A stretch of DNA of 62,270 nucleotides, filler included, from Dugesia japonica (GCA_001938525.1; 7 parts of 7 records of this genome joined end to end with filler, not necessarily neighbours in it); one strand, 5' to 3'. Counted from the whole stretch's first letter, positions 7,519-61,994 are shown. The notes: generated from the letters alone by a model not told the origin. A program made the numbers and translations.

Positions 7519-8453
7519 TGTTGGGGATTCACCTGAGTTGGATGTTAAGAAAAGGATGGCTGGGAAAAAACAGCCCTCGGGGAATCCTTTCAAGAATTTG
7601 AATCCAACACCCCTCAGTTGGATATTCAGTGCAGAGCGGTTGACATTCAACCTATACCGGAGGTTCACACTCGTACACCTTTAATTTGGGTTCATTAATT
7701 GCCCTTATAGACATAGATACAAAATTGGACAAAAGTTATCAAAACATCTATTAGTATTACATCTTATATGTCTTCCATCACACCAGGATCTAACCACTGA
7801 TTCGGGTCAGTCCCCCAAAAGTCAAACGCGGCAGTATCGTCATTGTCATCACACTGCGTCCACACAGGGTTTCCCATTTGGCTGGACAGGTCGGCTATGT
7901 ATTGCTTCAAGAATTCTATCTTTCTTTGTAATGTTTGTTTATTTTGTATTTCAAGAGCCATATTTTGGGCAGCCAAGTCACTCTGTTTTTAGACTATTAA
8001 ATCTAATTTCTTTATTAATCGGTTCCTCTGGGTGAGATGTTTTAGGATGACCTGTTCGGTCTTACGTTTTAAATGGCGTTCTAACAATAATCGTCGCATA
8101 ATCCGGTGACACCGTCGCAAACTTGTCGGGAATACGATTCGTGGCACTAAATGAAAAGTATAGTTAAGTCGGCTAAAACCAATTTTAAAAACAGAGAAGC
8201 AAATTAGAGTTGATGCAATTAAAACAATGTATTAAAGACAATCAAAATCATAAACGCGATAGCTCACGAGCATTTGGTCTGGGTACCTTTATCTACCAAG
8301 AGTGGGGGCAAAGGAATGGCTGTTCGCAACTTCAGGATATTCTCTATTAACTGATTCTCGCGCTCCTGGTATGACTTGATGAATTCGGTGAGGGATCCGA
8401 CTTGTGCTTTCCATACCCTTTCCTGCTTCTGGGTTGCTTCTATCTCTGATTTG
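7519..8453 (-). mobile_element. Copy B of the cassette element (3' part, cut by the contig end)
   Basis: Contains the ORF3 C-terminus (8264-8453, ...LVDKGTQTKCS*), ORF4 (7764-8146, premature TAA at ~7990) and the same 3' terminus. It interrupts a Helitron-associated repeat unit. Confidence 0.85.
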
Positions 8454-12809: not shown

Positions 12810-14117
12810 TTGTCACACGAAGCGTATTTCTTAAATCAAATAAATCGATATTTGAGAATTGCAGTGTAAACTAATCGAATCAAAATATTGGAAATAAAAT
12901 ATTGGAAAGATTTGGATGGTTAATTAAAGATGATAAATTTCTTCCCCCTGAATTGTATAAGGTTCTTAAAGTGGTTGGTTCAGAACCATCCAAGTTGTAT
13001 GGTCTTTCTAAAGTCCATAAGAGTAATGTTCCTATAAAACATGTGTTATCTATGATACACATAACTCAGATTAATCTTGTTAAGTTTTTAGATAAGAAAA
13101 TTAAGCCTTTAATCGACCACAAGGATAGCTTTGATTTTTTAAATTTTATTTCTAACTCTGAAGCTGTTAGTAGTTCTGAATATATGGTATATTCTGATGT
13201 TGCTAGTTTATTTATAAATGTTTCATTAGAGGAAACTATTATTCTTTGTTGTATATTATGGAAAAAACTTGTCTTAGCATGATTTATTAAGTGTAATTGA
13301 TTTTTTAGAGCTTTAGACTATTGCTACGTTTAATGTACATTTTGTTTAATGATGAATGGTACAAACAAAGTTGATGGAGTTACTATGGGTTCATCTCTTG
13401 CACCTACACTAGCTTCTTTATTTTTGTCAAAATATTGAGGAAAATATTGATTTGTTTATTGGAAATAAGCCGCTAGTGTATAAACGCTATGTGGATGATA
13501 TATTTCTGGTTTTTAGCAACCAAATAGATATTGACCAATTCATAAACTATATGCATTTGTTACATAGCAACATTAGATTCACTACAGAAATGGAATGAAA
13601 ATCTAAACTTTCTTTCCTTGACTTATTAATAGAAAAAAAGTCTAAACATTATGAAACAGAGATTTATCACAAACCAACGAATACAGGCTTGTATACATCT
13701 GGTAATTTTTGTGAATCTCGTTATAAGTATAATATGATTAAAGGAATGTTGTATAGATCATGGAATCTTTACTTTTCATACTTGAAGTCTTGTGCTAATA
13801 TTCAAAGTTTAACATCTTTACTAAATAAAAAGGATTATTGTAAATCAATTGTGGAGAAATTAAATCGTGAAACAATTGATAAAATCGTTCATAAAAATAA
13901 TGAAATTAAAGATGTTACTAATAATGATAATAATTTAAACTGTGAAAATATTATCAAAGACCCAGATAAAATAGATAAGTNTAGTTACGTATTAACTGTT
14001 CTGTATTCGGAAGGATTTAAACAATTTAAGAGTGAATTGTTAAAATATAGAAATGTCTCTTTGAATTTGAAAATCGGTAATAAATTTGGAACACTTCTAG
14101 TTAAATCTAATTTTTAA
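12810..14117 (+). mobile_element. Penelope-like element reverse transcriptase remnant
   Basis: Motifs LYGLSKVHK, DVASLFINV, DGVTMGSSLAP, YKRYVDDIF, SFLDLLI and YHKPT, with frameshifts. Confidence 0.9.
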
Positions 14118-26953: not shown

Positions 26954-29450
26954 TACTTTTTCTGCTCTAGCATGACACAAAAGATGGTGTATCCTTAATA
27001 TAATCTTTTCTACTTTATTATCAGGTATCCATGTTCTTACATCATTCTCACTAAAATTGCCTTTTTTGTCTTGTATTTAATGTTCTTGTTTTTAATTTTC
27101 CAATTTTGGGATCTTCATGCGACATTAGACATTGTGTATATGTACCGCATTCATTAATAGACAACATATCCGCATTTGTATGAAGTCATCCTTCTTTATA
27201 TTCCAATTTTATATCTAAACTGATCAAATAATTAATCCAAGTTTGAAACTGTGATTTCACGGGATTCTTGGTATTTAGCATAAAAGTGATGGATTTATGG
27301 TCTGTTCTGAGGACAAACTTCATTCCATTTAAGTAATGTTTGAAATGAATACAAAAGTAGTAAATTGCTAGCAATTCTTTCCGTGTAGTTCAATATTTTT
27401 TCTAATGACTCGTCATTGCATGAGACCCATATGCAATTACTCTTTCTTGCCCATTGTTGTTCTTTGAAGATAGTACTGCCCCAAGCGTATCAAAACTCGA
27501 ATCCGTGTCCAAATTAAATTCTCTATTTATATCTGGAAAATATAATATTGGAGACATCATTAGTGTTTCTTTTATTCCATTAAAAATTTCTTCTAATTCA
27601 TTCGCCCATTTAATATTCTTGTTACTTGGCTCACTATACAGTTGTTCAGCAATCTAGCTTTTTTCGAATAATCTTTAATAAACTTGCGATAGTAATTGCA
27701 AATTCCTAAAAAGATTCTCATTTTCTTAACGCAGTTTGGTTTATCAAAGTTCTTAATTGCTTCTATTTTATTTGGATCTGTTTTGACATTTTCTTTATTG
27801 ATAATGTGTCCCAAAAGTTTGATTTCTTTTTGCATGAATTGACATTTCTCTGGATTAACTTTTAGACCAGCCTTTTTAATTTCTGTCATTACTTTATTGG
27901 CTACTTTATAGTGTTGCTCCTTTGATTTGGTAAATATGAGAATATCATCTAGATAAATTATTGCTTCTTTTATTTTCCGGATCACTTTATTCATCATTTC
28001 CTCGAACGTCCGTGGTGCTGCTGAAATTCCAAAAGGCATTTTATTGAAACAAAATTGCCCTTGTTTGGTGGAAAAGCCGTCTTTTCTTGAGAATCTTCAC
28101 TGAGTTGCAATTGATAATATGCATTTCCCAAGTCTATTGAGCCAAAATACTGCGTAACTTCCAAAGCATCCAGCATTTAGTCCACATTTTGCATAGGAAA
28201 AGCTTGTCCTTTTGTTATTGCTTGAGCTGTCTAAAATCTAAGCATGATAGTATATTCTTTTTTTCCTTTTTCCAAATCCAGATTAATGGCCTATTTCATT
28301 GCAAATTAAACTTCTGGATGATACCATTGTCATATAGATTTTTGATGAACTCTTTAATTTTTTCCTCTAGATTCATTGATTAGCGATACGGTTTTATGTT
28401 GATAGGACCTTCTTTAGTGATTATTCGATGCTTTTTTAAGTGTGTACTGCCAATATTCCATTTATATGTCATAGATACATCCTCATTGTTTTGAATAATC
28501 ACAGTCAATCTATGATCTTTGTTAATTTTTAGAATCTTTATTGCTTGTCTCAATTGTTCACCCGTCTGTATCTGCCTTCCAGATGTTTCCTCAATATTGC
28601 AAACAAATTTTTCTCGATGATTATTGATGTCTATCCTGCACTTTTATTTGAAGATGATACTCAAAAGTATTCTGAATTTCGACTCCACTAATTAGATATG
28701 GTAATAATTAATCTCTCTACTATTATAAATATTACTTCCTTGCACACCTTTGAAACTACAACTTCTTGTCTCCAATGAGATTTAATTCGCGCAATGCAAT
28801 CGTTCTTCGCTTTTCTCTAACATTGTTTCTTTGAGTCTATTAAATCCTTTCATGCTCATCACATTTTTATTTGCTCATGTATTTCACAAACAATGAAACT
28901 GTTCTTCCTTGCATTTTTTCATATGAAATTTTTACATTCTGTTTCTCTTCAATTGCTCATATCACTTCTGTTTTGTTAATTTTTGCATCATTTAAATATT
29001 TTCGTTTTAGGAATCTGTAAACCTTTTCTTTCACTTTACTCGTCTCTTACCGTTTTTCAGTCTTTTGAGGACATTCAAACGGTATCTCGTTAAATGAATG
29101 GCTCCAACCAACTTCTCTAGTCACGGAGCCCTGCCTTTTGAATATTTTCTTCTTTGATCTTCATTTTTTATTATGCTCCCAGAAAATATCTCTTCATTCT
29201 TTTATCATAATCTTCTTAAATGGCATGAATTGGTTAGGTCCGAATCCAATCTTTTGTTTGTTGTTCGCTTTTAAAATTGTATTTTCTCTCTTCTAGTCTT
29301 GTGTTATTAATGTGACCTCGTCTTTTACATCTACCAAATAAAATTTCTTTGCACATATTTCTGATGTGACTAATCTTACCGCACCCAAAACATTTTAGTG
29401 GTTTCTTATCTGGACAATTTCTACTTAAATGTTCTTTTTTCATTATTTAT
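26954..29450 (-). mobile_element. Ty3/Gypsy gag-pol, decayed
   Basis: CCHC knuckles (29234-29443), RT motifs IDLGNAYYQL, MPFGISAAP and YLDDILI, and RNase H motif RTDHK. Confidence 0.95.
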
Positions 29451-37011: not shown

Positions 37012-37919
37012 TTAGGTTTTTCGGTTTACACGATACGTTTTACTCCAGATATCCATTAAACAAATTGATGAATGAAATCGAAAAAATATTATTAATGGCA
37101 AGAGTGTATGTGTGATAATGCTCCAAGGAGTTTTTTGGTAATATTTCGTAAAAATTAAGTGTTCGTCGGATCGTTTAGCTTCAAAAATACTAACAATCCA
37201 TAACGCTAAATTGATAACAATTAGAAATGTTACTAAAGATCTTCCGGGTTTGAGCTTTACTTGAATTTCACTAATTGTTCCTTTTCTTGAGCTTTCAAGT
37301 ACAAAAAGAACTTGTATAGATGACTGTATTATTTCTGTAAGAGACTTTAAAATAAACAAAATAATGATCAAAGAATATTTCGGATTGTCTAATCTTATAA
37401 ACGAATCAATTGTTGAAATAAATAAGAAAAGATTATATGAAAAGACACCAGCCAAACCAATTAAAAGAAGATTATCATCCAATGCTTGTTCTTCTGTTAA
37501 CTGTCGGAATTGCAAACTTCTCATTTTAATAAAAGCCCAAATAAGAGTTATAATTCCTGAAATTAAAAGTATTATTTCTGATGATTGATAAACGAGAATC
37601 GATAGAGCCTTTGTTGCTATTTTCTTTCTAAAAAGAAAAAATATAGCAACCCCAACTAAAGTAACCATAAAGAAAAACAATCCAATAAATAGTCCTCGAT
37701 GTGATCTGTGACATTCTGAATATTTAACTCTACTTTCTTCTGTAGGTGCAGTGTACTTGTCCCGATAATGAGGTTCTTTGTATTTTCTCCCAACTTTTTG
37801 AAGCATTTTATAAAATATGGCAGCACTAATTAAACTATATTCAATTGAACAAGGAAATAAATATGGTGACACTGTGTATGATAATTGTTGAGAACAGTTT
37901 GAGTAACTGTCGGTTTCAT
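37012..37919 (-). CDS. otop: Otopetrin family proton channel, terminal exon
   Basis: Motifs SPYLFPCSIEYSLI, GLFIG, KPGRSLVTFLIVINLALW and PLIIFFRFHSSICL. The acceptor TTTAG at 37920-37924 is phase-compatible with the upstream exon. Confidence 0.95.
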
Positions 37920-37997
37920 CTAAATCGAATCAATTATGAATATAAATATTAAAAAAATCTTAAAAAAATTTAAATAATTTAACTATTAAAAAAATAA

Positions 37998-38391
37998 ATA
38001 ACGTCATTTAAAATAAAAATTTATTGTTATATATTTTGACAGATCAACCGTCATCATCAGACATAATGAAAAATATGAGATTATTCAGTCTACATTATTC
38101 AAACAAAGATTCAAGCAATTATACTGAATATAAGATGGTTATAATCAAAAAAATTTTATAATAAAATAATAGAATATTTAAAATTTTTAAAACCTATATA
38201 AAATTAAAAAAACAAGAAATTTTTTTTTACTCCAAGTAATTTTTCAAATTTCAAATTAAAAATGTATTGAAATTTTAAAAAAACTATAATAAAATTATAA
38301 TTGATTGAATCTTTGTTTAAATAATACAGACTGAATAATCTCATATCCGTCGAAAAATATAACAATTAAATTTTATTTTAAATGGCGTTAT
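37998..38391. repeat. Long imperfect inverted repeat in an otopetrin intron with a hammerhead relic
   Basis: Outer arms AATAACGTCATTTAAAA / TTTTAAATGGCGTTATT and inner arms ATATGAGATTATTCAGTCT / AGACTGAATAATCTCATAT. The minus strand carries CTGATGA TGAC...GTC AAAA. Confidence 0.75.
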
Positions 38392-39343
38392 TTAATTTTT
38401 ATCAAACATTTGTTATAGTTTCTTTCATATTAATTTAATTACCCTATAAACATTTTAAAGCTCTTTAAACAAATTAATAAAATATGATAAATTCTTTCAA
38501 TAATTATTTATGTACATATTTACATTGATTTTCACATCTAATTAATTTTCTAAATGAATTATTAGTATTTCTACAATAAATATAAATTTATAGAAATTGT
38601 TTTATTTAAAACGGTATTTTATAAAATTTTTATATAAAATCAAATCATCAAAACTTTATATTATTTTGTTTTAATCTCTTATTTTTAAAGATAATTGAAT
38701 GAATGAACGAAAGATTGGTTAATAAGAGAAATTCCAATAAAAACTTTATTCATTAAAACAAATTAATTTCTTCAATATATTCTAAACTTTTTGAACTTTT
38801 TAATTTTCAAATTACCCTTTTTTATTTATTAGTAAGTATTTAAATAAGTTATTATTTTTTATTTAAATTAATTTTAAAAAGACGTTTTAATAAATTATCT
38901 TATTTACAAATTTTAAATCCAATAAAAATCTATACATTTAGAAAAATATCTCAATACTTAATACTTAATAAGTTTAAATTCTTAAATCTATCTTAGAAAT
39001 TAAAAATAAAAAACCGAATTAAAAAATCTATACACTAACTAAATTTCATAGTTTTCATTTATTAGGTGTGTGAATTAGTTTCCGGATTCAGATTAAAAAC
39101 GCCACAATTGAAATATGCAATTAAAATACATTAATGAGATATATGCTATTTAAAACTGTCAATAAATATCTATTAATTCCAGTATGAAAATGTTTTGTTT
39201 AAATATTCATCATTTTATAATCAAACATGGAAATAATTTTTTAACTCTTAGAAACAAATAAACCAATTCTTAATAGAAATTAAGAAATTATATATCTGCT
39301 TTTTATAAGTTCAACATTTAATAACTATTTATAAAGTTGATAC

Positions 39344-39488
39344 TTGTTTTCATATTTTGCAGAAGATGATGTTCAATTAATTCATGATTGATTTCATAAA
39401 CCACAGTCTTGAACCATTGACAAATATTCGAAGTAACAAGATTATATAAAATAAACCGAATAGTTGCTTTGTGTTTCAAAAATATTAT
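39344..39488 (-). CDS. otop: Otopetrin internal exon
   Basis: Reads IIFLKHKATIRFILYNLVTSNICQWFKTVVYE, matching the RF...TN.C.W....E motif. AG/GT boundaries; the donor position is less certain. Confidence 0.85.
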
Positions 39489-39564
39489 CTATAAAAAGAT
39501 CAAATTTATTTTCTTCGAAATTAAAATTTTTTATTAATTAAAATGTATTTAATAAGGTGCTTAC

Positions 39565-39722
39565 TCTGTGATATTTGAAAACGAAAAATGTTTGAATAAA
39601 AATATATGTTAAATGCAAAATATGTTTAGGAGTCCATAATTCATTGTGACAATTATCGCCTTCTAATCTGAATTTGTCAGCAATTTTAAAACCATCATGA
39701 ACCATTACTCCAAAACCAAAAC
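39565..39722 (-). CDS. otop: Otopetrin internal exon
   Basis: Reads FGFGVMVHDG...HLTYIFIQTFFVFKYHR, with a TATAG acceptor and GTAAGC donor. Confidence 0.9.
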
Positions 39723-47934: not shown

Positions 47935-48900
47935 AACAGGGACAACAATCAGCAACTATGACATGGAAGAACTTAAGAAGACAATCACAGAAGTGATAAG
48001 ACAGTGTGAAGCGTGCTGAAAGAACAAAGTTAATACTGGGGCAACAAAAGTGACAACAGTAAAATTAAGCGCACATTGTCCATTTGAAAAGATATGGACA
48101 TTTGTGGGCCTTTTCGAGAGACTGTGAACAGACGAAGATATATATGTGGAATAATAGATCAATATAGTCGATATGTAAGCCTAACGGCAATCAGCAAGCA
48201 AGATGATGAGACAATTAAAAAAGTGATAATGGAAAAATGGATCCTGAGATTTGAAGCTCCGAGAGAAGTTCATGTGGACAGTGGTAAAACATTTGAATCG
48301 AAAAACTTCAGGAGTCTGGTGGAATCGATGAACATGAAAGTATATTTTTCAAGTCCATACCATCACAATACAAACGGGATAATAGAGAGACGATTCCGCA
48401 CAATCAGAGACTGTATTAACGCAGCCGCAGAGGAAGATAGAAGAAAGGATTGGAATAACAGAATACCGGAGATTGAATACATGATGAATGCGACAAGGCA
48501 AAAGATATTGGGGATATCACCAGCAGAATTAATATTTGGTAGGAGAATTCACAGAGAACAATGGTTCGACAGCCAAAAAGATGACAAAGAGTCGATGGAA
48601 GAAACACCTACAAAAAGACAATTTCAAGTGGGAGACGAAGTATTGATAAAACTAGAACAAAAGACAATGAAAGATATGCTGGCCCATAAAAGATAGCGTA
48701 GAAGGTTCATGAGAGAGGATATCGTATACGAAATGCAAATGGAAAATTGCTAGAAGGGAACGTAGAAAAACTTAAACAATTCTTTTAATCGAGGGGGATG
48801 TAAGTATTAAAAATTGAAATTGCAATTTAAAGTTTGAAAAAGAAAATGCTAAAAAAGATTTCAAGAATTTTTTAAAAATATTTAAACAACTTTGTTTAAA
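47935..48900 (+). mobile_element. Gypsy integrase, polypurine tract and start of 3' LTR
   Basis: CEAC zinc finger, MDICGP, HVDSG and SPYHHNTNGIIER. PPT GAGGGGGA is followed by TGTAAG at 48799. Confidence 0.92.
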
Positions 48901-50147: not shown

Positions 50148-51303
50148 TTAGGTTGTAAAAATATAAAAGGCGGTTTTCGAAATTTTCGTGTTTTTATGAT
50201 TTTGTAAATAAAATTTTTTATTATTTTGAAGTGTGTTTTCCAATTAACGTAATATAATAAAAATTTTACTTTAGTTAATTATTGAAAGTTTTTACTAGTA
50301 TTTCTAGAAACCATTAATAATTAACAGATTAGGATAATTTTGCTATATCAATCGAAATATCAATCATTTATTTAACAAAGAAGCAACAAGTGAACGTACC
50401 ACTGAACGCTGAAATTTAAAACTGGAAATAAAAGTCTTGAAGATGAACAGAACTCTCCAATTGAATGAATTCGTCGAAACTGATCCGCGTACAACTGTTT
50501 GAGAACTTACTTGTGACCTAGAAGTATCACTCTGATCGTTTCCAATCATTTGAGAGAAATTTAGAAATCAAAGCAACTTAAGAAATGAATACCTCACGAA
50601 TTAACATAAATTCAAAAATATCGTCGTTTGGAGGTATCTTAAGCAGTTCTTTCACCCAACAAAACGCGTTTCTTGATAGGATTGATGCGTCCTACGAAAA
50701 GTGGATACTTTACGACAAACATCGACGTCTTTTGCAATGATTAGATCGAAATTAGGCTACTAAATATTTTTCTAAGCCAAAGCTGCGCCGACGGAAGGTT
50801 ATGATGACTGTTTAATGGTCTTCTACAGGTTTGGTCAATTACAACTTCTGGAAACAATTTTGATCAAACCGATGAAGTTAACAAGAAACTGAAGTTGGGC
50901 TACCGAGCCATTGTCAACAGAATGAAGCCACTATTTCTCCATAACAACGCCCGGCCACACCTCACACAATCTACACTACAAAATTTTAACCAGTTAGGCT
51001 ATAAAATTTTGCCTCGGCCTGTTTACTCACCATACCTCTCGCTTACTGATGATTTTTTCAAACATTTGAACAAGTTATTGAACGGGAAAATCTTAAACAA
51101 CCGAAATGATGTTATTAATGCCTTCAGAGATTTCATTGCATACAGAACTCCCGATTTCTATTCTATTTGGATAAATATACTTGTTGGTAGATATGTGTAC
51201 ATTGTTATGGGCTTTATTTTGATTAAAAAATTTTGGTTTAAGCTGAGATTTGTTCATTTAAAATTGAAGATTGAAAACCGCCATTTATTTATTTATAATC
51301 TAA
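50148..51303 (+). mobile_element. Near full-length mariner, inactivated
   Basis: TIRs with TA TSDs. Motifs EKWILYD, HNNARPH and YSPYLSLTD. Confidence 0.92.
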
Positions 51304-51379
51304 TACACTAATTCAAAAACTAGATGGAAAAAATGTCAGTTCATAAATTAAAATAATAGGCTTCGAATGAATACATTTA

Positions 51380-53069: not shown

Positions 53070-53657
53070 TAATGTGAATTAAATATCAATATTATAACAG
53101 TTGTTAAGCTGGGACTAGATAGTTCAATGATAAATATCGTTATTTTGTTATTATAGGGTTTTCGCAAATATAAGTAATTTTATAATTACAATTATTGTGA
53201 GAATAATTGTTGAACTTAATCATTGATCGCATTTGAGATTTCATTAAAATANNNNNNNNNNNNNNNNNNNNNNNNNNNNNNNNNNNNNNNNNNNNTTAAT
53301 TAATTAANNNNNNNNNNNNNNNNNNNNNNNNNNNNNNNNNNNNNNNNNNNNTATTCTTTTATTGATTTGCCACAAAAAAATTCCCCGAATCAATCTGTCT
53401 ATTTAATTTACCTCACAATTATGATCAGAACCCAATACAAAATCAGAACCATTTTACTATTTTCGAAATTTATTTCATTCATTATTATTTATTTTTATTN
53501 TGGTGGTATTGTTCTATGGCTCACTAATTTTTCGAAAATTTATTTGTTATTAGTAGATGAATAGGTAAGTATCAGACCAGTTGAGAATAAAACTTAATCT
53601 ATTCACATAACAAGCACGGTATTTTGTATATTACATAATCACTTTCATGAAATTTTA

Positions 53658-53773: not shown

Positions 53774-54132
53774 ATTTTAGCATTATATAGAACGATACGT
53801 AATTGCTATGTTACATAATAAATATTTTTATTATCATTGTTTATCTTATTATATGATTATTTACAATTTTTTTATAACAACTATCAGAGATATATTATCT
53901 ATTAAATATATAACACCACAAGTAAATATTTCTTATTATTAAACGGGAACAAGCCAAAAAGCTAAATCAACGGAAAAGAATAGCAGGACCGTTATAATCA
54001 CCATTAACGAAATATGAAGTATGAAATCAACATTAGAAGAAAACGAAATAAAATCAAAGGTGAATGTGAAGTTTATAATTACAATTATTGTGAGAATAAT
54101 TGTTGGACTTAACCATTGATCGGATTTGAGAT

Positions 54133-54310
54133 TTCATTAAAATAAGATAAGGCTTCGATCAAAACAAAATTTATTTGTAAACAAAGTTCAAATTTTCGAC
54201 AATAGTCTTCTTTCAGGAAGAAGTCTCCTGAAGAAGACTAATGTCGAAAATTTGAACTTTGTTTACAAATAAATTTTGTTTTGATCGAAGCCTTATCTTA
54301 TTTTAATGAA
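54133..54310. repeat. Near-perfect 178-bp palindrome containing hammerhead cores
   Basis: ~85-bp arms differing at about 2 positions, with a 7-nt spacer. Confidence 0.95.
54221..54259 (+). ncRNA. Minimal type I hammerhead ribozyme (Penelope-type)
   Basis: AAGTCTC-CTGAAGA-A-GAC TAAT GTC-GAAA-ATTT-GAACTT: core boxes, stem II and an imperfect stem I. Confidence 0.6.
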
Positions 54311-56437
54311 TGTAAAGAACCGGGTAACATAAAAACCACTTACGCATGGAAATTAAGAACAATTAGTAATTTAATAATAAACAACGAAGAAAAGCGATAA
54401 GAAAAAATAATTAATTAGCAAAAGGAAATTAATTAATTTTAAAATAAAAAAGAAGAGAAATTAGTTAAAAATCTGTTTTATCAAGATAACTTTGTTCAAG
54501 GAAGTCGGAAAGAGCCCGGACAAGAAAAAATGAAGAGAGAACATCAAGATACAATTGAAATTACGAAGAGAAAAAACTTACCACCTTCCATAAGGGTACT
54601 GCAAGGTTTCCAAGATCCAGCCAATAAGAAACCTAAAAACAAAAATAGAACAAAGACACCAGTGTCAAGTGTCATGATAAAAATAACTACCAACGGAATC
54701 ACAGAAAAGTCTGTAAAATTCCAGAAAAGTAGCATCAATGCAAATAAAAACGGATTGTTTCAATTTAAAAATAACGGACCAATGTCAAACAAGTTGGGGT
54801 GTCTCAGAAACCCTATATAAAGGATCCCTGATTTCAACATTTTCATCTAAAAAATCAAGTTTCTAATAAAAAATTTTAACGATAAAATTTTTAACAGAAT
54901 ATAACTGTTCACCAAAGAAATTTCACCAGATAACAAGTTAGTACCTGGCCAGAAGAATTCGATTCCACCAGAATACGATTTAGTAAAAAACTTGATTAAT
55001 TAGATCACGATTAATTTTATTTCAAGAGTACCAAATCACCTCCGAAGAAATCTAATAATTCTAGTGTTGGAAATAGCGAGAACCGTTGTAGACAGCTTAT
55101 AAGAATAGTAAAAGTAAATTGTTATTTTTGATTATAAAAGTGATAAATTTGTTAATGTCGAATATTATTTAACTTAATAAAAGTAGTTTCTGTTATGCGA
55201 TTGGGCATTAATTTTTCTTTTAACTGATAATTTTAGAAAGCATTGGGAAATTGACCTCAAATCAAGCTAAGAATCCCTTTAAAAAATTATTGATTATTGC
55301 AAAGGCAAATATTTTTTTTTGTGGCGCACAAATAATAAAATATGGGAAAAATTGGTAATTTCAAAAGGCATGTTCTGGATTAACTAAAATTCGAGTATTC
55401 AGACAGGGTTTGATGGTTTTTGACAATTTTGCGTTACCCAGCTAGACTAAAATATCATAATAAAATAATCGAACAAATAAACCATTTCTAATTATTTATT
55501 AAAAAAAAACAGTAAATAGTAAAGCAACTCACCTCAATAAATTCCAATGAAATATGATCAAGAAGAATTGGCAATAAAATAAATTCCAAAATAATCATAG
55601 CATTCACTCTAAATCTCCTACTCATTATTGACAGCGGATTTTCAGAATCAGATGCTATAAGAGTAAAATTTTCCTTTAAGTCAATTAGGTACCATGTAAC
55701 ATATCTTACCCGTATGGTGAGAACTCCCAAGTAAAATTCAGCCAGATAAATTAATATTCATGCTAGTCGCAGTAGAGTGACTAATAGATATTCATTATTT
55801 AAATCAGATTATCTGCCCTACACACATACTTAAACTAACAGGCACACACTCCAACATGTAAAATCCAAATAGCTAATTTAAACAATGTTGCCACGCAACA
55901 ATAATAGGCAGAAATACAAAATCTCAAAAATAATAATTTTTAATTTGTTTTCTATGTTTTCTTCATGAATCTATTGATGAATAATAATATAGTAACAACT
56001 GTCGGGATCGGTATTACTAGAAGCTGGTCATGGTCCGCAATGATGGAGTTAGTAAATAAATAGGCATCGATTTATCATGATATTAAGAAAATTGAATTAA
56101 CATTTGGGTAGCCACTAATCAGGATCAGGATAGGGGTTAACCCCAGGGATATCAACCACGATATGGCCATGCTTTTATGCGTTAATGAGTAACTATATTG
56201 TGGATAAAAAGGGGGGAAATGAATTATTTGCGTTATGTGTTTTTGCGGTAAAATTAATTATTATGTTAAATACCCCTAATTCCATAACCAAAGTGCGATA
56301 ATCCTAGATAACTTACTTCCTTTAATGACTCCCGTTTCATGATACGACTCCTTAATTAAACCAAATGCTACAATAGTTTAATTCAGCAAGTAAATCAAGA
56401 GGCAAAGATCATAGTTAATCAGTTCATTTTTTTTAGT

Positions 56438-56620
56438 ATGTCAGATAAATTATATCATACCTTACGCTGGATTGGAAAACAGCGACAAAGTTGTCGGACA
56501 AAACAGTTGATAGCGCACCTCCTCACCAAGGGGCAAATTGAACACCCTGACGAAACAGATCTTTGCTGTTTCGCCGAGTTGTACCCTGTAGAGGTGAAAG
56601 TAGACTTGGACGAGGAGTGA
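56438..56620 (+). CDS. Cassette ORF1, 60 aa, unknown
   Basis: ATG lies 1 nt after the acceptor TTTTTTTTAG (56436). AATAAA follows at 56659. Confidence 0.5.
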   Translation: MSDKLYHTLRWIGKQRQSCRTKQLIAHLLTKGQIEHPDETDLCCFAELYPVEVKVDLDEE

Positions 56621-56748
56621 CATCGATTGTGTATTAGTATCCGTAAGGTGATTTCCTGAATAAAACTCTGTGTATTGTATTAATAATTGCATTTAAATGA
56701 CTCTTAAAATTTTATTTGTGGTTTATTATTATTTCATTATTCTTAGAA

Positions 56749-57105
56749 ATGGAGTCAATATGGGAGAGAACCGTAGATAGGAGAACGCGGCGAATCGTTT
56801 TCCGACGGCACCGCAATCCCCACAGTCGTGATGCAGGGATTCTAGCGGATAGAAGCAATCTGCCTCCCATAGAGTCAATTGTCGCACGTATAAGAGACTT
56901 CGGCGAGCGGCAGCAGTACCAGAATTGGACCAGGCCAGATCGCACCTTCGCGACCTCTTTCCAGTACCAGCCTCCTGCCCCTCTCCCCGCTCCGGCCATA
57001 CAGGCGTTCATAACTAACCTTCTTTGGGGGATTAGAGAACCGTCTGGAGTCATTGACAGTGAAAATACAGCCCCTAATATCGAAAATATTAATCCTGATA
57101 CCTAA
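56749..57105 (+). CDS. Cassette ORF2, 118 aa, Arg-rich N-terminus and Pro-rich segment, unknown
   Basis: Acceptor TTCTTAG (56746) is followed by AA-ATG. The frame reads MESIWERTVDRRTRRIVFRRHR...QPPAPLPAPA. AATAAA at 57124. Confidence 0.6.
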   Translation: MESIWERTVDRRTRRIVFRRHRNPHSRDAGILADRSNLPPIESIVARIRDFGERQQYQNWTRPDRTFATSFQYQPPAPLPAPAIQAFITNLLWGIREPSGVIDSENTAPNIENINPDT

Positions 57106-57255
57106 ATTTTGTCTGTTGCTTAAAATAAATGAATAGGTGTTTAAATTTTGTCTTCTTGTATTATATTTCTTTCGTTGCACAAGATAAGTTTTCGTTTTAT
57201 AAATATTATTCAACTAGACCTTGTAATTGTCATATTTAACAATCATAATATTCAG

Positions 57256-57614
57256 TGCATTCTTCTCTGAACAATTCTCAAGCTCCCCATAAAAAGTTAC
57301 GTGAGACAAGTGAAGATCTCGATCTCACATGGGATCTTTATAGATTAGCCAAAAGGCGATGGGAAACAGAGATCGCCGCGGCCGACGCTAAAGTAAAACG
57401 CTGCAAGCAAAAATGTTTAACTTTTAAAGCCGAACTGGACGCCACCCAGAAGCAAGAGAGGGTGTGGAAGTCCCAGGTTGAAACATTTACCAAGATTGTC
57501 CATTCTTATCAGGAGCGGGAGAATAGTTTGATGGAAAATGTATTGAAGCTGAGAGCAGCTACTCCTTTGGCCCCTCTCTGGATAGATAAGGGCACTCAGA
57601 CCAACCGCTCCTGA
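57256..57614 (+). CDS. Cassette ORF3, ~119 aa predicted coiled-coil protein ending in LC8-type motif DKGTQT
   Basis: Phase-1 acceptor ATTCAG|TG. The C-terminal part is conserved in copy B with synonymous changes. AATAAA at 57643. Confidence 0.75.
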
Positions 57615-57725
57615 GTGTCATGTTTACTAATTGATTGAGTTTAATAAACTATTTGTATCTTTGCTAATTGTCTTTTCTAATTATGAACTTGAGTTTTCGT
57701 CAGTTTAATTATACTTTTCATTCAG

Positions 57726-58108
57726 TGCCACGAATTAACTTTCCCAATAGTATCCGGAGGTGCCATAGAATTATGCGCCGCTTACTGGTCGAACGGCACC
57801 TAAAACTTAAGACAAATAGGGCATTTATGAAACAATTGGATCAGTGTGATCAATTAATTAAAAAATTAGATTTAATTGTCAAAAAGCAAAATGACCTGGC
57901 GGCTCAAACTAAAGCTTTAGAAACCGAAACCAAACAACTGTTGATGCGGAAAATAGAATTCTTGAAACAATACATCGCCGATCTGACCCGCCAAATAGGT
58001 AATCCAACCTGGATCCAGTGGAATGATAATGGCGATATCGCCGCCTTTAACTTCTCGATAACCGACCCGGATCAGAGGTTAGATCCCGGAGCACTGGAAC
58101 TGTTATAA
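57726..58108 (+). CDS. Cassette ORF4, ~127 aa basic, predicted coiled-coil protein with acidic aromatic tail
   Basis: Acceptor TTTTCATTCAG|TG is conserved in copy B as TTTTCATTTAG|TG. RKIEFLKQYIADL is identical in both copies. ATTAAA at 58201 is conserved. Confidence 0.75.
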
Positions 58109-59099
58109 ATAATTTTTGTGTGTGTATGAAAGAAAATATATATAACTAACCTCGTATTTTCTTCTTTGCTGACAAGAACAGAGAAAAGATTGAACCCGAA
58201 ATTAAAGGTTTTTGGGTGTGTACCTCTAATCAAGAATGACGTTAACCACCATGAACTGAAGACCTACTCTAGGGACGGTAGGATAAATTCTTGAACGGGT
58301 TCCCCTGAGGGCTGTTTTTTCCCCAGCCACTTTATTTTTCATTCAATTCAGGTGGGACCCCAACATTATTATCCTCATAAATAAATCTAAGAAGTCATTA
58401 TACTTAAAAAAATGACAAAAAAAATAATTTCTCAACTTAGGAATAACATATACATAATCAAAAAATAAAAAGATTTATCACAAAATTTATTTCATCATTT
58501 AAACTAAAATCATCGTCTTCTTCTTTGGCAAGCTGAAACCATTAAAACAGCAATTAAATACGTATTATTTAATTATTAATTTTGTAATGATAAACCTGAT
58601 GATTTATTGATTCNAAGTTAGTCTGCATAACTTTGTTTGGTTCTTCATCACCGTCTCCATCTTTGTTGGATGCATTTAAATTTTATGTGCGTTTAGAAAA
58701 ACGAGTTAAAATTTTTGTGTGATTAGTGATAGTATTTTTAAAATCTTTTGTTGAAAAGAAAGATTTAAAGTATTGATGGAGAATTTAAATAACAAATATT
58801 TTTTTCGATGATAAATTAAAGCTTTTGAGTAAAAGAAAACTTTAAATCAATAAATAAAATGTTGAAATAAATTAAATTAAATTAATTTTAAATAAATTAA
58901 GTTTAAATTAAAAAGAATTCATAAATGATAATTTGATAATAAAGTAAATTTTTATTAAAATTTGTAGCGTAAAAGAAAATTTGTCTTAAATTTTAAATAA
59001 ATAAATAAAATGTTTGAAATAAATTAAGTTAAATTTAGATAAATAAATTACAGTTTTCGATTTTGAAAAATGATCACCAATGAAAACACAGGATTTTAA

Positions 59100-61437: not shown

Positions 61438-61846
61438 TCAAGGTCAAATTTTTCAAGGTCACTGATACAGTATACTTGTATCTGATTGGTACGTGATTTA
61501 GTATACTCAATTCTTATTAGTGGAAAATTTGAAGGTCGAATTTTCAAGGTCAAACTGATACAGTATACTCTATTTTAATTGGTCGAAATATTTTCAAGGT
61601 CAAAGTGATATAGTACCCTGTGTTCTGATTGGTTGATGGGCTTCAAGGTCAATGTGATATAGTATACTGCGTTGGATTGGTTGATGGGGTTCAAGGTCAA
61701 AGTGATATAGTACACTGCGTTGGATTGGTTGATGAAGTTCAATGTCAAAGTGATACAGTATTCTATGTTCTGATTGATTGATGTGGTTCAAGGTCAAAGC
61801 GATATAGTATCCTATAATGTGATTAGTCAAAATTTTTCAAGGTCAT
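61438..61846 (+). repeat. 48-50 bp tandem array with TCAAGGTCA and GATTGG motifs
   Basis: Units start at 61544, 61594, 61643, 61691, 61739 and 61788, with partial units on both sides. Confidence 0.92.
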
Positions 61847-61994
61847 TTGATTAACTTCATATTTAAATTCCCCAGGGATACTCAATATTTCAATTTCCCA
61901 CGCAAAATTAATATTAATATAATTATTTATTTATTTTGTTTTTGTTTTTTAATATTAGAATTTAAACAAAGTTTTTACTTTATTATTAAATCGT

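Follow-up and report, generated by a model that had tools for sequence, protein, structure and literature searches.

Start codons assembled by splicing have been described in LTR retroelements: in the springer subclade of the Drosophila errantiviruses, env is reported to be spliced to an AU dinucleotide, giving AU|G (bioRxiv 10.1101/2023.08.03.551782). In the adenovirus major late unit, the protein to be made depends on which of the competing 3′ splice sites is joined to the common 5′ splice site and on which of several poly(A) sites is used (PMC4346872). Small accessory ORFs of Ty3/gypsy elements are known from the Drosophila MDG1 group, whose sORF1 and sORF2 have a poly(A) site between them (PMC11952523). 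The giant gypsy-like elements of planarians, Burro/GYPSM1, also carry accessory ORFs; their internal region is given as up to 25 kb and their total length as more than 30 kb, which implies LTRs of multiple kb, in the range of the 4.4-kb unit described here (PMC6431247). Flatworms also trans-splice, and the spliced leaders reported from them all end in ATG (PMC12582326).

Here, we describe four small ORFs that stand in a row on one strand inside a repeated mobile element of Dugesia japonica, two of the four lacking the first letter of their start codon. The window, i.e. the whole stretch of DNA analysed, has a length of 62,270 nt. As in springer env, the start codon of an LTR retroelement would be completed across a splice junction; however, that codon is split as AU|G, in a single ORF (env), and was mapped by experiment according to the preprint, whereas the present one reads A|TG, concerns two small non-env ORFs in a set of four acceptors and is known from DNA. 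The likeness to adenovirus is an analogy only, since this is a DNA virus with ~20 mRNAs from 28 kb, and the description of its major late unit mentions no split start (PMC4346872). The two MDG1-group ORFs lie upstream of gag on unspliced RNA, sORF2 being described as membrane fusogen-like, and no sequence link to them was found here (PMC11952523). Burro/GYPSM1 is likened to this unit by description alone, and the account of it describes no spliced micro-genes in the LTR (PMC6431247). Like this locus, spliced-leader operons of flatworms have genes set close together on one strand with an acceptor ahead of each, and their start may be supplied by another exon; they receive a complete AUG in trans, however, and at both acceptors followed by TG this AUG is out of frame (PMC12582326). 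By analogy, the layout is likely that of the springer split codon placed in an adenovirus-like arrangement. Splice-split start codons as such are known from springer env; finding them in two of four accessory genes standing in an array would add a new variation.

A repeated unit with four small ORFs, probably a terminal repeat

The features of the locus are collected in Table 1. The unit between 53940 and 58365 is referred to as copy A, and its partial relative on the minus strand as copy B.

Table 1 Features of the four-ORF unit and of its second copy
Feature	Position	Strand	Remarks
Mobile unit bearing ORF1-ORF4; candidate solo long terminal repeat	53940..58365	+	right end ...CCCCAACA firm; left end 53940 or 54792
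Palindromic insertion of very high copy number, left part of unit	~54072..54316	.	80-nt inverted arms 54133-54212/54231-54310
TATATAAA box and ATG-free stretch up to donor CAA|GTTAGT (GT 54937); second candidate leader	54814..54936	+	predicted
Alternative phase-1 coding mini-exon: ATG, 3 codons and G, then TTG|GTAATT at 55355	55342..55354	+	predicted; U1 match 6/9
Candidate shared leader end ...TTCAGCAA, last base A	56366..56389	+	no open ATG runs into donor
Proposed 47-nt intron, GTAAAT donor to ORF1 acceptor TTTTTTTAG	56390..56436	+	candidate from sequence; U1 match 7/9
ORF1, 60 aa; own ATG 1 nt past acceptor; AATAAA at 56659	56438..56620	+
ORF2, 118 aa; acceptor before 56747, own ATG 2 nt on; AATAAA at 57124	56749..57105	+
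ORF3 exon opening with TG; 118 codons after split codon; likely coiled coil; AATAAA at 57643	57256..57614	+
ORF4 exon opening with TG; 126 codons after split codon; conserved ATTAAA at 58201	57726..58108	+
Copy B: ORF3 end, ORF4 with in-frame stop, right end; 69% identical	7519..8440	-	upstream part in gap

The four ORFs differ in composition from the AT-rich spacers between them (GC 0.41-0.52 vs 0.23-0.25), and at the acceptors of ORF2-4 the GC content climbs from 0.20-0.27 to 0.40-0.43. YAG and a T-rich stretch precede each of ORF1-4, the stretch of ORF3 being the weakest (5 T in 15). AATAAA stands behind ORF1, ORF2 and ORF3, and ATTAAA behind ORF4; copy B keeps the latter and has AATACA in place of the AATAAA of ORF3.

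Sequencing reads were examined for one run, X1, and for three of seven raw RNA runs (X2, X3 and X6; 6 in 100 of one run and 25 in 100 of each of the other two were read), from 24 runs listed. Among these 24 runs, X1 was the sole match (0.38 of words); it is not on record as RNA, covers 30 of 30 bins and appears to behave as DNA. The unit is dispersed and multi-copy, as seen from copy B in the window and from the high X1 depth over the ORFs: the summed contig depth reached 4423 at ORF3 and 3615 at ORF4 vs 60-126 over 54835-56504, depth not being equal to copy number. One X1 contig is identical to 56218-56433 (0 differences), so the proposed donor region is no lone assembly error, although X1 is possibly the source of the window itself. 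X1 contigs also skip 54053-54315 and 54071-54349, where the palindromic insertion sits. An insertion of the same type also begins at 53176, and the type was seen in the reads of all three RNA runs.

The similarity of copies A and B runs as far as CCCCAACA (58365) and fades beyond it, and the right terminus CA is common to both. The TG...CA termini and the 4-6 bp target-site duplication of a Ty3/gypsy solo LTR were looked for. The left candidates open with TA (53940) or AG (54792). TTATTAT adjoins both 53940 and 58365, a match equalled or exceeded in length elsewhere in the same flank. The candidate at 54792 shares 8 bases with the inverted right end and is followed 22 nt further on by a canonical TATA box; 54792-54821 is a possible inner terminus of the unit. 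No gag or pol was found attached to the unit. The unit probably represents a terminal repeat that belongs to a large element of Ty3/gypsy type, and the ORFs would encode its accessory proteins; since the giant gypsy elements of planarians have multi-kb LTRs, a solo LTR is the best guess (PMC6431247). If the ATTAAA at 58201 serves as the poly(A) signal of the LTR, the ORFs would be part of U3 or R. In both copies, a T/C-rich stretch with CAG|GTG, 14 nt short of the right end (58330-58365 and 7519-7555), was also noticed; it could serve as a fifth acceptor or, alternatively, as a donor for splicing into sequence past the repeat.

ORF3 and ORF4 open with TG behind an acceptor, probably split start codons

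The first-pass annotation had proposed that the start codons of ORF3 and ORF4 are created by splicing. Both ORFs indeed open in frame as N|TG (TTCAG|TGCATT at 57256 and TTCAG|TGCCAC at 57726), with one upstream base wanting. An in-frame stop lies 3 codons above the ORF3 acceptor, and the sole in-frame ATG of this ORF is late (57531) and reads ATA in copy B, as had been noted.

Purifying selection was evaluated by comparing copy A with copy B, which spans ORF4 together with the final 58 codons of ORF3; a gap above 8454 removes the ORF3 acceptor and the donor. Upstream of the internal Met of ORF4 lie 15 codons, in which all six synonymous codon pairs cited by the first-pass annotation were present. 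These codons are evidently coding: 10 of the 16 differences are synonymous (10 over 11.8 synonymous sites, 6 over 33.2 non-synonymous sites; Fisher p=1.2e-4), compared with p=0.69 and 1 when the two remaining frames are read. In ORF3, 31 codons upstream of 57531 could be compared (p=1.9e-8), and dN/dS amounts to 0.087 over 58 codons of ORF3 and 0.099 over 125 codons of ORF4. Judged from these two copies, purifying selection acts on the codons behind AG|TG in ORF3 and ORF4 when they are read as N|TG, and in no other frame. The in-frame stop in the ORF4 of copy B marks that copy as decayed.

Despite an identity of 69%, copy B preserves both the AG|TG of ORF4 and the tract preceding it, and the differences in the 30 nt above the acceptor fall 2, 2 and 3 on the three codon positions, so third-position bias is absent there. 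Together, the selected codons, the patternless 30 nt and the kept tract and AG|TG indicate that translation most likely enters ORF4 at the junction. This bears on ordinary starts, in which ORF4 would begin at an ATG at 57683 or at the Met at 57773, ORF3 would be the tail of a longer spliced gene (e.g. joined to ORF2), and the pair of TG openings would be due to chance. The ATG at 57683, overlooked by the first-pass annotation, is in frame above the ORF4 acceptor in copy A, and phase-1 GT sites do occur inside ORF2. However, copy B is without 57683, the codons above 57773 are selected, no third-position bias extends above the acceptor, and ORF2 has its own stop and AATAAA, which makes ordinary starts very improbable.

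TG follows an acceptor-like YAG at 28 of 474 sites in the window (0.059), and N-TG codons account for 27 of 422 in the four ORFs (0.064); two TG starts would thus arise by chance with a probability of ~0.004, a post hoc figure. Taken together, the split-start anatomy of ORF3 and ORF4, that is, a partial start codon behind an acceptor and selected coding sequence after it, was confirmed at the level of the sequence.

Because the host is a flatworm, the array could also be an operon resolved by spliced-leader trans-splicing, the terminal AUG of the leader starting each ORF. Neighbouring ORFs are 110-150 nt apart, a poly(A) signal and then an acceptor standing in the gap, which fits the operon criteria given for flatworms (300 bp or less; PMC12582326), and copy A has an in-frame alternative ORF4 acceptor at 57704. 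The first-pass annotation had held, correctly, that the leader would be out of frame at both TG acceptors: its AUG reads 4 codons at ORF3 and 25 codons at ORF4, in an unselected frame (p=0.69 or more), and would mask the ORF. In addition, copy B does not have the 57704 acceptor in this phase, and ORF3 is without a good in-frame acceptor. We therefore consider trans-splicing of this kind improbable.

The completed A|TG would fit a common pattern of the four junctions, which read AG|T-ATG at ORF1 (56437), AG|AA-ATG at ORF2 (56747) and AG|TG at ORF3 and ORF4, the start positions relative to the junction being +1, +2, -1 and -1. All four starts are thus at a junction and ORF1 is in a different phase, so a non-coding leader fits better than a shared coding exon, which would be unable to serve all four ORFs. 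Nevertheless, ORF2-4 could all be joined to one coding mini-exon that has an ATG of its own and ends at a phase-1 donor, with TG merely ending a Val, Leu or Met codon. One base is wanted at the ORF2, ORF3 and ORF4 acceptors alike, the env genes of ZAM, Beagle and idefix are reported to be spliced to short upstream peptides (bioRxiv 10.1101/2023.08.03.551782), and a candidate that the first-pass annotation overlooked does exist (ATG 55342, donor at 55355 ending in G). On the other hand, this arrangement leaves the two TG starts, the own ATG of ORF2 and the phase-2 ORF1 unexplained, and the candidate donor scores lower and is 1.9 kb off. A coding mini-exon is, in our judgement, unlikely.

Two donors could supply the missing A

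A total of 113 plus-strand GT sites between 54820 and 57256 were scored by their match to a generic U1 consensus (a motif taken from general knowledge). The donor named by the first-pass annotation, CAGCAA|GTAAAT with its GT at 56390, is present and ends in A; with the acceptor before 56437, it would delimit an intron of 47 nt. Only two of the 113 sites reached a U1 match of 7/9, 56390 and 54937; both read CAA|GT, and neither is served by an open ATG. The ATG nearest to the 56390 donor, at 56365, runs into a stop at once, and the nearest one upstream of 54937 is at 54782. The site at 54937 lies ~115 nt below TATATAAA (54814, a TATA box) with no ATG between; since it ties in score and ends in A, it is a real alternative leader that would give the identical A|TG. 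The claim of a shared leader ending in A stands in so far as 56390 is a joint-best donor with a final A, but not as to this donor being the single choice, because 54937 matches it in score and in its last base. Unless short upstream ORFs are tolerated, a leader that is free of ATG and ends at 56390 would have fewer than 25 nt.

The final A itself adds little support, because A-ending donors are common by composition (10 of the 27 strong GT sites in the window). The one host donor that could be placed by homology, CAGA|GTAAGC in an otopetrin gene, also ends in A (n=1).

The same data bear on a near-cognate start of ORF3 and ORF4, in which a donor ending in G or C would give G|TG or C|TG, or the genomic GTG would be used in unspliced RNA. 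Such a start accounts equally well for the conserved TG, AG followed by TG makes an in-frame GTG automatically, and G is the usual final exon base in animals. Nevertheless, both best donors end in A, the G-ending ones score lower, and the conserved pyrimidine tract favours real splicing. We regard near-cognate initiation as unlikely, by a shade more so than the coding mini-exon.

Directly above the 56390 donor, TTTAATTCAG (56377-56389) is itself acceptor-like and would leave a 3-nt CAA; a spliced leader received there would be in frame with an unspliced ORF1 and out of frame with ORF3 and ORF4. On the minus strand, near-canonical donors were noticed at 56316, 55709, 55532 and 54581 (54581-56316), with acceptor-like sites that give introns of 55 and 86 nt. 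The last exon base at the minus-strand donor 56316 is again A, and only 73 nt separate this donor from the one on the plus strand, a hint that a spliced transcript may run in the divergent direction from a shared promoter. A search of minus-strand exon chains assembled no convincing protein.

Proposed selection of one ORF by splicing

On balance, we lean towards a reading in which A|TG is completed by a leader without ATG whose final base is A, the ORFs serving as its alternative last exons. Transcription of the unit would be on the plus strand, and one 5′ splice site, most likely 56390 with 54937 as the alternative, would compete for four 3′ splice sites, so that the shared ATG-free leader is cis-spliced to one ORF at a time. 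Its final A would complete the A|TG of ORF3 and that of ORF4, and translation of ORF1 and ORF2 would begin at the ATG that each of them has 1-2 nt past the junction. Cleavage at the poly(A) signal behind the chosen ORF would then yield four monocistronic mRNAs. Unspliced or read-through RNA would have no full-length start for ORF3 or ORF4, the ATG at 57683 in copy A being the exception.

Of the first-pass interpretation as a whole, the coding N-termini needing one base, the candidate donor and the out-of-frame leader held up; as to the identity of the donor, 54937 is an equal candidate. Its further proposal, that translation is gated by splice choice, may follow from this arrangement, yet the choice of splice site and poly(A) site would select the ORF even if the codon were not split. 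The full picture, a four-gene cassette in a terminal repeat with a tiny leader giving its A to two genes, splice choice as the on-switch in the manner of an adenovirus late unit, and four protein families absent from the databases searched, is put forward tentatively.

If the leader does complete the codons, genomic RNA running through the repeat would be unable to make full-length ORF3 and ORF4 proteins, and the gift of one base to two ORFs would extend the env trick of gypsy elements to the silencing of accessory genes on unspliced RNA. An ATG that exists only after splicing also leaves a gene invisible to ORF finders, and giant flatworm retroelements may encode accessory proteins that are so far unannotated.

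Products of the ORFs

A protein search with ORF3 and ORF4 gave no match at E 0.001 or better. Pfam returned no match for ORF1 and ORF2 and sub-threshold matches only for ORF3, the Atlas returned no usable match for ORF4 or ORF2, and ORF1, ORF2 and the otopetrin piece were absent from a protein collection in an exact look-up. No relative was found among viral and metagenome contigs; eight of eight motif matches in contigs were attributed to chance. Two ORF4 matches among representative proteins, one a DUF7507/DUF11 protein and the other an InlB B-repeat protein with a secretion tail, were rejected as multi-repeat proteins matched over short stretches only. A sigma-70 promoter scan was set aside as inapplicable to an animal. 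A single-sequence model predicts for ORF4 a short helix (residues 7-22, low confidence), a 60-residue helix and a beta hairpin, with a mean pLDDT of 72. We found no description of the four-ORF cassette in the open-access literature, and the accessible text of PMC13524379 and PMC11410931 contains nothing on it.

RNA reads over the ORFs

Over the bins of 56338-58174, X6 had an RNA depth of 0, X2 reached 0.22 in a single bin, and X3 showed 0.13-0.9 in three. The few reads of X3 all have the first-mate-plus orientation, which in most stranded libraries denotes the opposite strand. The proposed junctions were found in none of 15 of the 69 joints listed, all 15 coming from X1; the RNA runs are nearly without reads on the ORFs. 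LTR elements of planarians are reported to be de-repressed upon knockdown of piRNA silencing, and their silencing is expected in normal animals (PMC8532177).

Other features of the window

The otopetrin gene is a host gene on the minus strand (37012-39696) with at least three exons, one 76-nt intron of which was placed by homology; the two best-scoring named hits among 8 are from flatworms. Further segments resemble what we take to be gypsy reverse transcriptase (27593-28096, minus strand), integrase (48088-48696, plus strand), mariner transposase (50808-51311, plus strand) and Penelope-type reverse transcriptase (12875-14117, plus strand). At 61543-61862, a tandem array comprises about six units of 48-50 nt built on TTCAAGGTCA and GATTGG motifs.
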